DNA from: a virus
Length of the DNA: 25,422 nt
Strand: one strand, 5' to 3'
Virus genome (UHGV): UHGV-0247665
Shown: in pieces, positions 3,959 through 24,236 of the stretch
Layout of the letters: each line of letters opens with the position of its first letter
How positions within the stretch are numbered: position 1 is the first letter of the stretch
The notes under the pieces: generated by a model
Told to the model about the DNA's origin: nothing
Seen by the model: only the letters and a program-made list of their open reading frames with translations
Databases searched by the model: none
Program-made: the position numbers and the translations under genes

Positions 3959-3970
3959 GTGACATGTCAC
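3959..3970. repeat. 12-bp perfect palindrome GTGACATGTCAC (copy 1)
   Basis: Exact match; contains the TGA stop of the lipoprotein gene. Confidence 0.6.
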
Positions 3971-18362: not shown

Positions 18363-18655
18363 TCCTGTTCACTGGCCTCTTTGGCCATCTTCAAATACTG
18401 TTCAGGGCAATGCGCCATAACGCGCTGAAACAGTTCCAGCGCCAGATTGCGTTGCCCCTCATTAAATGCCATTGCCATAGCATCCATCGGAGAGATAGCG
18501 GAAAACACCCGGCCTTTCTCCAGCACCGACCAGACAACGCGACGCCCCTGTTCACTGCTCATGACAAAGCAAATGTCATCAATTTCACGCTGTGCCATGT
18601 CACGTTGCTTACGGGCGTTTTCTTCTTTCAGTTGATCGTCTTCGTAATCTGTCAT
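18359..18655 (-). CDS. Hypothetical head-morphogenesis protein (98 aa)
   Basis: ORF track. 4-nt overlaps with both the portal stop and the scaffold start. Confidence 0.55.
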   Translation of the reverse strand: MTDYEDDQLKEENARKQRDMAQREIDDICFVMSSEQGRRVVWSVLEKGRVFSAISPMDAMAMAFNEGQRNLALELFQRVMAHCPEQYLKMAKEASEQE

Positions 18656-20642: not shown

Positions 20643-20657
20643 TTACCTTTCAGGTAA
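20643..20657. promoter_or_regulatory. TTACC-N5-GGTAA palindromic motif copy (ATTACC-tttca-GGTAAG)
   Basis: Intergenic, between the 68-aa/portal gene start and the tRNA; a TTGACA hexamer lies at 20621-20626. Confidence 0.5.
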
Positions 20658-20979: not shown

Positions 20980-21056
20980 GTGGCATTAGCTCAGTTGGAC
21001 AGAGCAACCGCCTTCTAAGCGGTTGGTCGCAGGTTCGAATCCTGCATGCCACGCCA
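20980..21056 (+). tRNA. tRNA-Arg (anticodon UCU), 77 nt with encoded CCA
   Basis: Folded by hand: 7-bp acceptor stem GTGGCAT/ATGCCAC, D-arm, anticodon stem ACCGC/GCGGT with loop CTTCTAA (U33, anticodon TCT, A37), T-arm GCAGG-TTCGAAT-CCTGC, discriminator G, CCA. Close to the E. coli argU-type tRNA. Confidence 0.92.
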
Positions 21057-21141: not shown

Positions 21142-21219
21142 ACAGCAGGACGCCATTGCGATGACTTCATGCTGTAAACCCGTACAGCCACGGAAGGCAT
21201 AACTCATTGCTTCCAGTTC

Positions 21220-21254: not shown

Positions 21255-21611
21255 ATGAACGACCAGCAAATCGAAAAAGAAATCGTTGAGAAAGGCAAAA
21301 CCGCTCCGCGAGTTACGCCTCAATATATCGAAAGCATCATTCTTGAAGAGCATTTCTTTACTGCTTATGACGGCATTCGTGCTGCCAATATGGGCGTTGG
21401 CGATACGTGGACAGCGCATAAATCTACAGACCTCCTTACTTTCTGCGTACTGGTGCTGAAGAATGGCTTCACCGTCACCGGAGAGAGTGCCTGTGCAAGC
21501 CCGGAAAACTTTGATGCAGAAATTGGTCGGAAAATTGCCCGGCAGAATGCTGTAAACAAAATCTGGATGCTTGAAGGTTACTTGCTGAAGCAGAAGTTAA
21601 GCGAGCAATAA
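21255..21611 (+). CDS. Small conserved phage protein (118 aa); tentatively N4 gp49 / Sf6 gp66-like family
   Basis: ORF track; SD AAGGTGA. The family assignment is recalled from the motif FCVLVLKNGFTVTGESACASPENFDAEIGRKIA and is unverified. Confidence 0.65.
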   Translation: MNDQQIEKEIVEKGKTAPRVTPQYIESIILEEHFFTAYDGIRAANMGVGDTWTAHKSTDLLTFCVLVLKNGFTVTGESACASPENFDAEIGRKIARQNAVNKIWMLEGYLLKQKLSEQ

Positions 21612-21701: not shown

Positions 21702-23177
21702 TTAAGCATACGGGTCATAATCTGTGATGGCCTTGCCTTGCTGGTTCTGCTGCCCAGGAATTCGCAGACGCTTCGACACAGGGAAAGCAAACGTCAGCAA
21801 TAGCGCATCGCCTTTACCAGGAGAACGCCCAAGCCGCTCCTTGATATCTTCCTTCGGTTCGATAACGATTTTACCGTCCACGCGAACTTTGTACTCTGCC
21901 GCCGACAGGTCGTCCGCTGTTTCCTGGTCATCCAGCATGCCGCCCAGCCTCAGCCATGTCTTGCATGAGTTGAACATCTCCCCACGCTTGTTAAGCATCT
22001 GCGGGTCAGTAGACGCGCCACCGAACGGAACAAGTTGCCATGTACGCCCCCAACCATCACCGATTGACTTCAAACCGGTTCCGTAACCGAAGTCGATGAA
22101 CACCGCGTCAGCCTGGTACTGGTCTTCAAAGTCAGCGATACGCTTCGCCATAATCAGATCGTCAGTGGTCTTGTTGCCGGTCCACAGCACCTTACTGTGC
22201 AGCCCCTGCCGCAGATATATCACCGCGTCATCAACACCGGAGTATGCCGGGTCAACGCCGATTATCACCGGAGCATGTGCAACCTGCGCAGCGGTGACCA
22301 CCCGTTTCATTGCCTCGTCAGTAAGTCCGGTAGGGATAAACTGCAATTCAGATGCATCCGGGAATATGCCGCGCACACGGATTTTAACGAAGTCGCTATC
22401 TTCCCCGTAGTCATCAACCCATTTCTGCAACTGCTGTTTGTTAGTGCCTTCCACCGTCCGGCTGTCAATCTGCGCAGTTTTCCAGCGGTGTTTGTATTTG
22501 CGGAAACATTCGCGAAAACGCCCGGTATTACGTGTAGGGTTTCCGAACGCCACCCAGATAATCTCAGTGTCTTCGTCCGTAAGCGCACCCTCAGCAACTT
22601 CCCACACCAGATCCGCAATGTTCGACGCTTCATCGAATACCACGATGATGCGTTTGCGCTCGTTGTGTAGTCCGGCGAATGCCTCAGTGTTGTGCTCAGA
22701 CCAGGGGATTGCGTCAGCTCGCCACCGCTTGTCGTGCCCAGGATCATTGCTGTACATCGCAGTAGCGGTACAGGTAAACCAGTCTTTCGTGATAGCAAGG
22801 TTCGACCACTTGATAATTTCCGGCCAGGTCTTCGTTCGTAGCTGGTTGTCGGTGTTGGCGGTCACCACGACCTTACAATCCTCGCAAGTGGACATGCCCC
22901 AGTTGATCAGCATTGAGATGAATGCGGATTTACCAATACCGTGACCCGAAGCACGTGCCAGCATAAGCGGCTGATAGCGCGTCTCTGGATTCTGCAGGTG
23001 ATCACGTATCTCTCGGAACGCATCAGCCTGCCACTGACGTGGGCCGGTAGCATGTGCCAGTTCAGTCCCCTCTTCCCCCCACGGGAACGCATAGAGGGCA
23101 TAGCCAAGCGGATCGTGAGTGAACCCTGCAATATCCTCGATCAACTGCTCTTCAGGAGATAACGCTGTATCTGTCAC
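21702..23177 (-). CDS. Terminase large subunit (491 aa)
   Basis: ORF track. Walker A-like GHGIGKSAF, Walker B-like IIVVFDEAS, and C-terminal nuclease-type motifs (GVDPAYSG, FIDFGYG). 4-nt overlap with the small-subunit gene. Confidence 0.9.
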   Translation of the reverse strand: MTDTALSPEEQLIEDIAGFTHDPLGYALYAFPWGEEGTELAHATGPRQWQADAFREIRDHLQNPETRYQPLMLARASGHGIGKSAFISMLINWGMSTCEDCKVVVTANTDNQLRTKTWPEIIKWSNLAITKDWFTCTATAMYSNDPGHDKRWRADAIPWSEHNTEAFAGLHNERKRIIVVFDEASNIADLVWEVAEGALTDEDTEIIWVAFGNPTRNTGRFRECFRKYKHRWKTAQIDSRTVEGTNKQQLQKWVDDYGEDSDFVKIRVRGIFPDASELQFIPTGLTDEAMKRVVTAAQVAHAPVIIGVDPAYSGVDDAVIYLRQGLHSKVLWTGNKTTDDLIMAKRIADFEDQYQADAVFIDFGYGTGLKSIGDGWGRTWQLVPFGGASTDPQMLNKRGEMFNSCKTWLRLGGMLDDQETADDLSAAEYKVRVDGKIVIEPKEDIKERLGRSPGKGDALLLTFAFPVSKRLRIPGQQNQQGKAITDYDPYA

Positions 23178-23770
23178 TGATTACCATCCTGACGTTCTTT
23201 GAGTCGCTTCCTGGCTGCTGCTATGCGATCAGCAATTGTCACATTCACATTAACATCCAGACGTTCTTTGAACGCGTTGACATCAACATGCTTACCAATC
23301 AGCTCAAGGTTCTTCACCTTGTCAGGCCATTTAATTTTTTTGAGGATTGTCTCTATCGAATCCTCGTTCATGTTCATGATGGTCGATGACAGATCAAAGC
23401 CACTAAGCGTAGTGCGCCAGATTTTCGGCCACTCACGGATTGGTTTAAGGCTCCCATCGTCGTTGAGGATGTCGATCACGTCCATCTGGTCGATCTGCAC
23501 CAGGCGCATGAGAACGTAATCAGCACTGACGCGCATTCGTTTGTTGCGCTCCTCCATCAACTCGGCAATCCGTTTTTGAATGCGTTCATCGCGCATCATG
23601 ACACTGGCTTTAACTGCCGCTGTATTTGGGGAGAATCCTGCGTTAATCGCTGCCTGAGTCTGGTTTTCAGGCGTTTTGATGTATGACTGGCAATAAGCCT
23701 CCTGCATTGCTGTTAGTGGCTTAAATTGCGTTGATTTGCGTTTATAGGTTTTAGGTTCAGCAGGCATCAT
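23174..23770 (-). CDS. Terminase small subunit (about 199 aa from ATG 23770)
   Basis: ORF track 23174..23848 uses a TTG start. I prefer the tandem ATGs at 23770 and 23767, preceded by GGTGG, because a terminator hairpin and motif cluster occupy 23771-23848. The LTAMQEAYCQSYIKTPENQTQAAINAGFSPNTAAVKA region resembles small-terminase (Terminase_2-type) N-terminal domains. Confidence 0.75.
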   Translation of the reverse strand: MMPAEPKTYKRKSTQFKPLTAMQEAYCQSYIKTPENQTQAAINAGFSPNTAAVKASVMMRDERIQKRIAELMEERNKRMRVSADYVLMRLVQIDQMDVIDILNDDGSLKPIREWPKIWRTTLSGFDLSSTIMNMNEDSIETILKKIKWPDKVKNLELIGKHVDVNAFKERLDVNVNVTIADRIAAARKRLKERQDGNQ

Positions 23771-23787
23771 AACCACCGTGGTAATAG

Positions 23788-23802
23788 TTACCGTTTTGGT
23801 AA
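23788..23802. promoter_or_regulatory. TTACC-N5-GGTAA palindromic motif copy within a cluster of GGTAATAGT repeats
   Basis: GGTAATAGTTACC-gtttt-GGTAATAGTACC lies 20-40 nt upstream of the small terminase ATG. Confidence 0.5.
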
Positions 23803-23813
23803 TAGTACCATGC

Positions 23814-23839
23814 AAAATAAAGCCGCCATAGTTGGCGGC
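23814..23839 (-). terminator. Intrinsic terminator on the minus strand between the 115-aa gene and the terminase operon (GCCGCCA-n4-TGGCGGC then UUUAUUUU)
   Basis: 7-bp GC stem at 23822-23839; the minus-strand U-run corresponds to plus-strand A-run 23814-23821. Confidence 0.5.
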
Positions 23840-23880
23840 AGTATTCAAAACCCATCAAATTCATCATGCATAATCTACTC

Positions 23881-23892
23881 GTGACATGTCAC
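23881..23892. repeat. 12-bp perfect palindrome GTGACATGTCAC (copy 3)
   Basis: Exact match; contains the TGA stop of the 115-aa gene, upstream of the terminase operon. Confidence 0.6.
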
Positions 23893-24236
23893 ACTATTAA
23901 TTTCGTTTCATGCCAGCCTTTAGTCACCCAGCATTGCGAGTCACCATTACACGGGCATGAATTAACGGGAACTCTCTCGCCGCACTTACCGCAACGTTTT
24001 CTGCTGATCGATTTTATACGCCCGCGCACACGTGCATCATCCTGGCGGATCAGCAGCGCGATGTACTCGGACATTTCATAGGGATCGCGACCAGGGCGCC
24101 GGGCGGCGCAGTTCCGCGCCAGCATTTCCTGCTCCTGCTTATCCAGCACCAGTTCAATTTTGCGCTCACCGGCGGCGGACTGCCGAGCGCGCTGCGCGGC
24201 TTTGCGTTCTGCGGGGGATTTAGCCACGAATCGCAC
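23889..24236 (-). CDS. Basic protein with C-terminal Cys cluster (zinc-ribbon-like), 115 aa
   Basis: ORF track (GTG start). CGKCGERVPVNSCPCNGDSQC near the C-terminus; Lys/Arg-rich N-terminus. The stop codon is embedded in the GTGACATGTCAC palindrome. Confidence 0.5.
   Translation of the reverse strand: MRFVAKSPAERKAAQRARQSAAGERKIELVLDKQEQEMLARNCAARRPGRDPYEMSEYIALLIRQDDARVRGRIKSISRKRCGKCGERVPVNSCPCNGDSQCWVTKGWHETKLIV

Follow-up and report, generated by a model that had tools for sequence, protein, structure and literature searches.

The interval 23771-23892 of the window, by which we mean the whole stretch of 25,422 nucleotides of the virus genome UHGV-0247665 that was analysed, is the boundary between an early-right operon and the packaging operon, an ordinary regulatory junction. 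To judge from the sequence, its control most likely consists in direct repression of a promoter that would belong to the packaging operon itself. A terminator, a candidate promoter under direct repression by Rep, the CI-like repressor of this phage group, and a start of the small terminase gene (terS) at ATG 23767 form together the best explanation of what is found there, one that we hold to be probable. The arrangement is already known, as it is orthologous to features annotated in epsilon15. What can be added to the epsilon15 annotation is small, namely the start codon at 23767 and a tandem second operator, O2, and the sole part that may be new is a palindrome, GTGACATGTCAC, together with its predicted ribbon-helix-helix protein.

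Layout of the junction

The window is an epsilon15-like (Uetakevirus) temperate prophage whose late genes run along the minus strand. The 1.2 kb around 23771-23892 are 93-100% identical to the Uetakevirus phages phiV10, TL-2011b, ZX5 and phiv142-3, and epsilon15, SPN1S, PAT1 and Tyrion show a more distant similarity to the same 1.2 kb. All large open reading frames near terS are carried by the minus strand (terL at 21702-23177, terS ending at 23174, an ORF of 115 codons at 23889-24236). Comparisons involved 80 loci retrieved with the 115-residue protein, 11 loci from other genera retrieved with TerS, and more loci retrieved with distant family members (numbers with the prefix L designate such loci); 18 gap-free close variants provided a footprint of the interval, and five complete relatives (epsilon15, phiV10, SPN1S, PAT1 and Tyrion) a survey of operators. 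The features on which the argument depends are the following.

23889-24236, minus strand: ORF of 115 residues (112 in its RefSeq form, which starts at 24227), homologue of epsilon15 gp49 and N15 gp46
23881-23892, palindromic: copy A of palindrome GTGACATGTCAC, holding the TGA at 23889-23891, invariant in the 18 close variants
23813-23841, minus strand: putative intrinsic terminator closing the early-right operon (stem 23839-23833/23828-23822, loop ACTA, T-run 23821-23814)
23802-23810, minus strand: extended -10-like element TGGTACTAT, TGG followed by TACTAT (TGnTAnTAT), candidate terS-terL promoter, its start predicted near 23795
23788-23802, palindromic: operator O1, TTACCAAAACGGTAA, exact TTACC-N5-GGTAA with spacer AAAAC, overlapping the end of the -10-like element and the predicted +1
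23770-23784, palindromic: operator O2, TTACCACGGTGGTTA, TTACC-ACGGT-GGTTA, one mismatch, 18 bp from O1
23174-23767, minus strand: small terminase gene terS, revised start at ATG 23767, 197 residues
21616-21627, palindromic: copy B of the palindrome, flanked on one side by the stop of the convergent ORF 21255-21611 and on the other by the hairpin of a bidirectional terminator that lies downstream of terL
20643-20657, palindromic: exact operator copy upstream of the gp3/portal unit; its epsilon15 homologue, 2931-2947, is annotated as repressor-binding
3959-3970, palindromic: copy C of the palindrome, abutting hairpin 3958-3941, the terminator with which the structural operon ends

Read along the minus strand, the 115-residue gene, whose 3' end is AAA TTA ATA GTG TGA, has its stop within GTGACATGTCAC, and this is followed by 41 nt, the hairpin, the T-run, GCA TGG TACTAT, O1, CTA, O2 and ATG ATG. 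The initial annotation of this DNA had seen the stop as embedded in a palindrome, and the TGA at 23891-23889 does lie inside a perfect 12-bp GTGACATGTCAC at 23892-23881; all the elements that it had listed are present where it placed them, on the minus strand, and are conserved. A scan of the interval against Rfam returned no known RNA family.

The minus-strand terminator proposed earlier at 23814-23839 was recovered as well. A terminator scan returned the stem GCCGCCA/TGGCGGC at 23839-23822 followed by the T-run TTTATTTT at 23821-23814, that is, a G+C-rich hairpin of 7 bp, 6 of them G-C pairs, closed by a 4-nt loop and continued by a U-tract. Folded with a few flanking bases the hairpin reaches -14.5 kcal/mol, and the whole interval folds at z = -2.9. 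The record of epsilon15 (NC_004775.2) has at the homologous position a stem_loop, 39646-39672, annotated as a rho-independent terminator. The hairpin does not vary among the 18 close variants, and its stem is nearly invariant in the relatives, L099 alone changing it by two G.U-compatible substitutions with no true compensatory pair, a pattern that fits an RNA hairpin while falling short of compensatory proof. In L091 and L093 the terminator is absent ahead of the terS block.

The likeness to epsilon15 extends to the whole junction, where one meets GTGACATGTCAC at the gp49 stop, a hairpin GCCGCC...GGCGGC, TGTTACTAT, TTACCAAAACGGTAA and a second site lying over the ribosome-binding sequence. The differences are that the epsilon15 record marks the first operator only, leaving the -10-like element and the palindrome unmarked, and that 25 nt separate palindrome and hairpin in epsilon15 as against 41 nt here.

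The position of the terS start follows from a comparison of three candidates, ATG 23770, ATG 23767 and TTG 23848, the last being that of the ORF list. Counted from ATG 23770, the Pfam Terminase_2 match begins at residue 19; the phrog_51 match begins at residue 28 of the 224-residue TTG form, directly past the methionine of ATG 23770. Upstream of ATG 23767, in-frame stops are found at 1, 3, 7, 7, 13 and 13 codons in L091, L099, L095, L097, L093 and L100, respectively, and the TTG, at codon -27, is missing from the epsilon15-type relatives; the start at TTG 23848 is ruled out by these stops, by that absence and by where the domain matches begin. As for ATG 23770, it is replaced by ATT in L022 and L052, by ACG in L039 and by ACA in epsilon15, SPN1S, PAT1 and Tyrion, and ATG 23767 is the sole start common to all relatives. 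The sequence GGTGG (23777-23773) is spaced by 5 nt from 23767 and by just 2 nt from 23770. The start of terS is therefore most likely ATG 23767 in preference to 23770, so that the earlier choice of ATG 23770 over TTG was right in rejecting the TTG and wrong in retaining a codon that is mutated in many relatives. The TTG form (675 nt, 224 residues) is annotated in phiV10 and in the RefSeq E. coli record that was inspected (WP_001090120.1; L213, 375-1049), and the short form in TL-2011b, epsilon15 and Tyrion. The 27 residues that the TTG annotation adds to TerS appear to be in reality the terminator, the promoter element and two operators, and they are not conserved as coding sequence. Correction of this misannotated locus has some value, as it was found in 700 of the 5,426 complete E. 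coli genomes.

Operators and a candidate promoter

A tandem motif cluster had been reported ahead of terS, and it stands up to statistical examination. TTACC-N5-GGTAA is exact at 23788-23802 and present with one mismatch at 23770-23784, and the window holds six matches at no more than one mismatch for 0.48 expected, a number reached in none of 100 shuffles. A 10-nt direct repeat, TGGTAATAGT, is present in two copies 18 bp apart; the "GGTAATAGT" repeat, which occurs twice, is made of ACTA, from the -10-like element, and the left operator half-site TTACC. O2 covers the ribosome-binding sequence GGTGG (23777-23773) and is present in relatives of several genera (L091-L100). Five copies in the window are exact, at O1, 20643, 1548, 1928 and 2962, the last three around the antirepressor region.

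This 15-mer is the very motif that flanks the repressor gene with sets of operators (3+3 copies) in epsilon15, phiV10, SPN1S, PAT1 and Tyrion; in epsilon15 the repressor gp38 is at 32690-33286, with operators at 32479/32555/32617 and 33341/33358/33388. Other copies in the relatives lie ahead of terS (two), of gp3/portal, tailspike and lysis genes, of int and of a RuvC/DUF1064 gene, making 10-12 exact operators per genome of 39-42 kb, or about 14-18 when one-mismatch copies are counted. Seven sites are labelled 'repressor; lysogeny' in the GenBank record of epsilon15, where the protein_bind feature 12-27 is the ortholog of O1. We can understand TTACC-N5-GGTAA as the operator of the CI-like repressor (Rep) of the phage group, in which case the motifs point to negative control and not to sites for an antiterminator or an activator, the two modes of control suggested initially, neither of which finds support. 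The more general suggestion that the packaging operon is controlled at this junction agrees with the presence of a conserved terminator and of apparent repressor operators ahead of terS. The half-sites are the same in all complete relatives, which amounts to a single operator specificity with no covariation of repressor and site to compare, and the window, which stops short of the immunity region, does not include the repressor gene. The description of ZX5 in the literature yielded no operator or transcript data.

The OL and OR regions of lambdoid CI and Cro are built alike, as short inverted repeats that overlap promoters, are bound by a helix-turn-helix repressor and number three on either side of its gene. 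In lambda, however, the late genes have no operators and depend on Q antitermination, whereas in the epsilon15 group operators also precede packaging, portal, tailspike and lysis units, a difference that matters for the engineering of reporter phages such as phiV10.

The candidate promoter that O1 would control is the element TGGTACTAT. As in an extended -10, TGn directly precedes a hexamer whose second base is A and whose sixth is T, and of the aligned relatives L100 alone does not keep TG(G/T/A)TA(C/G/T)TAT. In relatives with another upstream context, such as L091 and L093, the left edge of the homology falls at TGGTACTAT. No -35 element was found ahead of it, and a promoter scan did not call it, its sole call being a weak GTGACA-18-CATGAT that precedes the terminator. 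From the terminator to the start codon, substitutions among the 18 close variants occur only at 23813, 23808, 23805, 23796, 23795, 23786, 23778, 23769 and 23768, which are the base that follows the T-run, the variable base of TGn, the third base of the -10 hexamer, the O1 spacer, the linker, the O2 spacer and the first ATG; not one affects the palindrome, the hairpin, the TG, TA and TAT of the element, the four half-sites or GGTGG. The block TGnTAnTAT-O1-O2-SD-ATG is retained across genera in which TerS identity is 65-89%, and also in L091 and L092, where a cargo gene controlled by a LexA box is inserted between the 115-residue gene and terS. The same design, terminator, operator, second operator and gene, is found once more in phiV10 (L007) at 35038-35150 and in epsilon15 (L006) at 35880-35990, where the ribosome-binding sequence, 3 nt from the ATG, falls inside the second operator. 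This second instance suggests that such genomes have repeated restart points controlled by the repressor.

These observations lend themselves to a simple scenario. The conserved terminator at 23839-23814 would halt transcription coming from the early genes, and the control block that follows, TGGTACTAT at 23810-23802, O1, O2, the ribosome-binding site and the ATG at 23767, would govern terS anew. If TGGTACTAT is active as an extended -10 promoter, transcription would start near 23795 with a leader of about 28 nt, O1 then lying at roughly -7 to +8 and O2 at roughly +12 to +26 relative to that start. Rep of the relative SPC32H is described, at second hand (PMC9638917), as a tetramer on palindromic sites, disassembled by an antirepressor. 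In a lysogen of the present phage, a Rep tetramer would occupy both O1 and O2 and block RNA polymerase at the promoter or just after it, leaving terS-terL silent; upon induction, the LexA-controlled antirepressor, encoded in the window, would inactivate Rep and free the promoter. Direct repressor control alone gives no account of the delay of late genes with respect to early genes.

The antirepressor region has features of its own. A sigma-70 promoter, TTGCAA-17-TATATT at 1900-1928, ends in the exact Rep operator 1928-1942, and it is the only convincing promoter at the other operator copies. Downstream of it, Rfam recognizes isrK (1979-2055) and C4 antisense RNA (2074-2160), at the start of an ORF of 279 residues of the Bro-N/antirepressor type (2056-2895), reminiscent of the antisense layer placed on the antirepressor in P1 and P7, and a canonical LexA box, CTGTATAAATATACAG, is present at 1602-1617, upstream of the ORF 1639-1896. 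LexA box and isrK/C4 RNAs fit the known Rep/Ant/LexA route of induction.

Other readings of the junction

The late operon could have no promoter of its own and depend on regulated read-through of the terminator, the 115-residue protein acting as an antiterminator or activator via the palindrome at its stop. The 115-residue gene is indeed the last early gene, directly before a terminator and the late genes, as the regulator gene is in the lambda Q-pR'-tR' arrangement, and the palindrome, which is tightly linked to that gene, recurs beside terminators. One half of it, GTGACA, forms with CATGAT the weak promoter-like match upstream of the terminator, in a manner akin to pR'-tR', and profile searches with the protein give faint matches (E 0.06-0.09) to the TraR/YbiI zinc finger, which occurs in proteins that bind RNA polymerase. 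Yet the comparison with lambda soon breaks down: the protein has no match in Pfam or NCBIfam, hence none to a Q family, its predicted fold is ribbon-helix-helix, and there is no convincing promoter between the gene and the terminator. GTGACA-18-CATGAT agrees at 9 of 12 positions, and such matches occur at the frequency of chance (2 found for 3.6 expected); the spacer is not conserved in sequence in the epsilon15-type relatives. N15 possesses, besides a genuine Q, gp40, a member of the family, gp46, whose stop carries the same site, and this coexistence led us to reject a role of Q analogue for the 115-residue protein; a Q homologue is annotated in none of the complete relatives. In about 28 related loci another gene comes directly after the gene and its palindrome, without a terminator, the palindrome near terL sits after the hairpin in the direction of the late genes and not before it, and the TTACC-N5-GGTAA motifs invoked for such a control are, as argued above, apparently operators of a repressor. 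We consider read-through unlikely. Somewhat harder still to believe in are operators that would have no promoter to control and would act as roadblocks, or as anchors for looping or condensation by the repressor, terS being expressed by leakage through the terminator. Many of the 10-12 exact operators of each genome have no convincing -35/-10 pair nearby, a Rep tetramer is able to hold two sites, and O2, which covers the ribosome-binding sequence, would be part of the transcribed leader, all of which such a role would accommodate; it leaves aside, however, the conserved TGnTAnTAT found precisely where the conserved block begins on its left side, and the retention of this block even where no terminator precedes it.

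Pac sites are commonly located in or beside terS (P22, Sf6, SPP1, P1), so that the repeats before terS might also be a pac site bound by the small terminase. They are tandem and immediately upstream of the gene, and headful packaging is used in the group, Tyrion being circularly permuted and the large terminase resembling P1 PacB. The 15-mer, though, is dispersed over the genome, both flanks of the repressor gene included, and is not specific to packaging, which makes this reading very improbable. The records of phiV10, SPN1S, epsilon15 and Tyrion all open inside the interval upstream of terS, Tyrion exactly at the centre of the palindrome, but record starts near terS are conventions of annotation, as when phiV10 starts right after the stop codon. 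A physical genome end (cos or pac) at this place was likewise discarded: phiV10 opens one base past a stop codon, the records open at different positions, and circular permutation is reported for Tyrion. Direct repression by Rep of a promoter proper to the packaging operon stays the reading that we prefer.

The palindrome and its candidate protein

The 115-residue protein is predicted to be a DNA-binding protein that combines a ribbon-helix-helix with a zinc ribbon. Membership of the DksA/TraR zinc-finger family was not retained, since E values of 0.06-0.09 together with zero Pfam matches make of it a faint lead.

Besides three exact copies of GTGACATGTCAC, the window has one with a single mismatch at 18592-18603, and 135 exact copies are present in 490 kb of related loci for 0.03 expected. 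In the relatives the palindrome stands at three or four equivalent places: at the stop of gp49, past the terL terminator, where the structural operon ends and, as a degenerate copy, at the Rz stop. Copies B and C are 0-3 nt from intrinsic terminator hairpins, in the order stop codon, palindrome and hairpin when read in the direction of the good T-run, and the palindrome positions are 3' ends of transcription units as well as junctions where variable cargo genes are swapped. At the 3' end of the genes of the 115-residue family, GTGAC-N2-GTCAC is found down to about 33% protein identity, N15 included, with the spacers AT, CA, GC, AG, GG and TG, either over the stop codon or 1-2 nt past it, and in more than 10 downstream contexts. 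A full-text search of the literature for the palindrome sequence brought nothing relevant.

The half-sites of GTGACATGTCAC equal those of matS, the 13-bp GTGACRNYGTCAC recognized by E. coli MatP (PMC6907758). The palindrome differs from matS in having a spacer of 2 nt instead of 3 nt, all copies being the 12-bp GTGAC-N2-GTCAC, and no GTGAC/GTCAC copy with a spacer of 1, 3 or 4 nt was found in six genomes. The architecture of MatP, a four-helix bundle, a ribbon-helix-helix and a coiled coil, is not that of the 115-residue protein.

It is natural to suppose that the 115-residue protein binds GTGACATGTCAC at the stop of its own gene. That a family of uncharacterised phage proteins with a ribbon-helix-helix and a zinc ribbon recognizes GTGAC-N2-GTCAC and acts as an operon-boundary element, or as an organiser of phage DNA, is a tentative proposal, which we hold to be less likely than not. 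Should it be true, palindrome and protein could form a roadblock, or a modulator of termination, at the 3' ends of operons, and this pair is the only lead of wider interest that the junction offers.

In a distant clade of the family (L173-L186, found with P0163), GTGAC-N2-GTCAC is absent, and beyond the stop there is another inverted repeat, GGTGC-N7-GCACC (in L175 GGTAC-N7-GTACC), with arms that seem to covary. A cargo gene directly follows the palindrome of the 115-residue gene in L068, L073, L084, L087, L091, L092 and many of L102-L172; these genes, UmuD-like or other, have their own promoter and a perfect LexA box. In the window, CTGT-N8-ACAG has four matches for 0.41 expected, and a LexA-box match, CTGTAAACCCGTACAG at 21172-21187, precedes the convergent cargo ORF 21255-21611 by about 70 nt. 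Between this ORF and the portal unit, a tRNA-Arg gene (anticodon tct) is present at 20980-21056 on the plus strand, opposite to the late genes.
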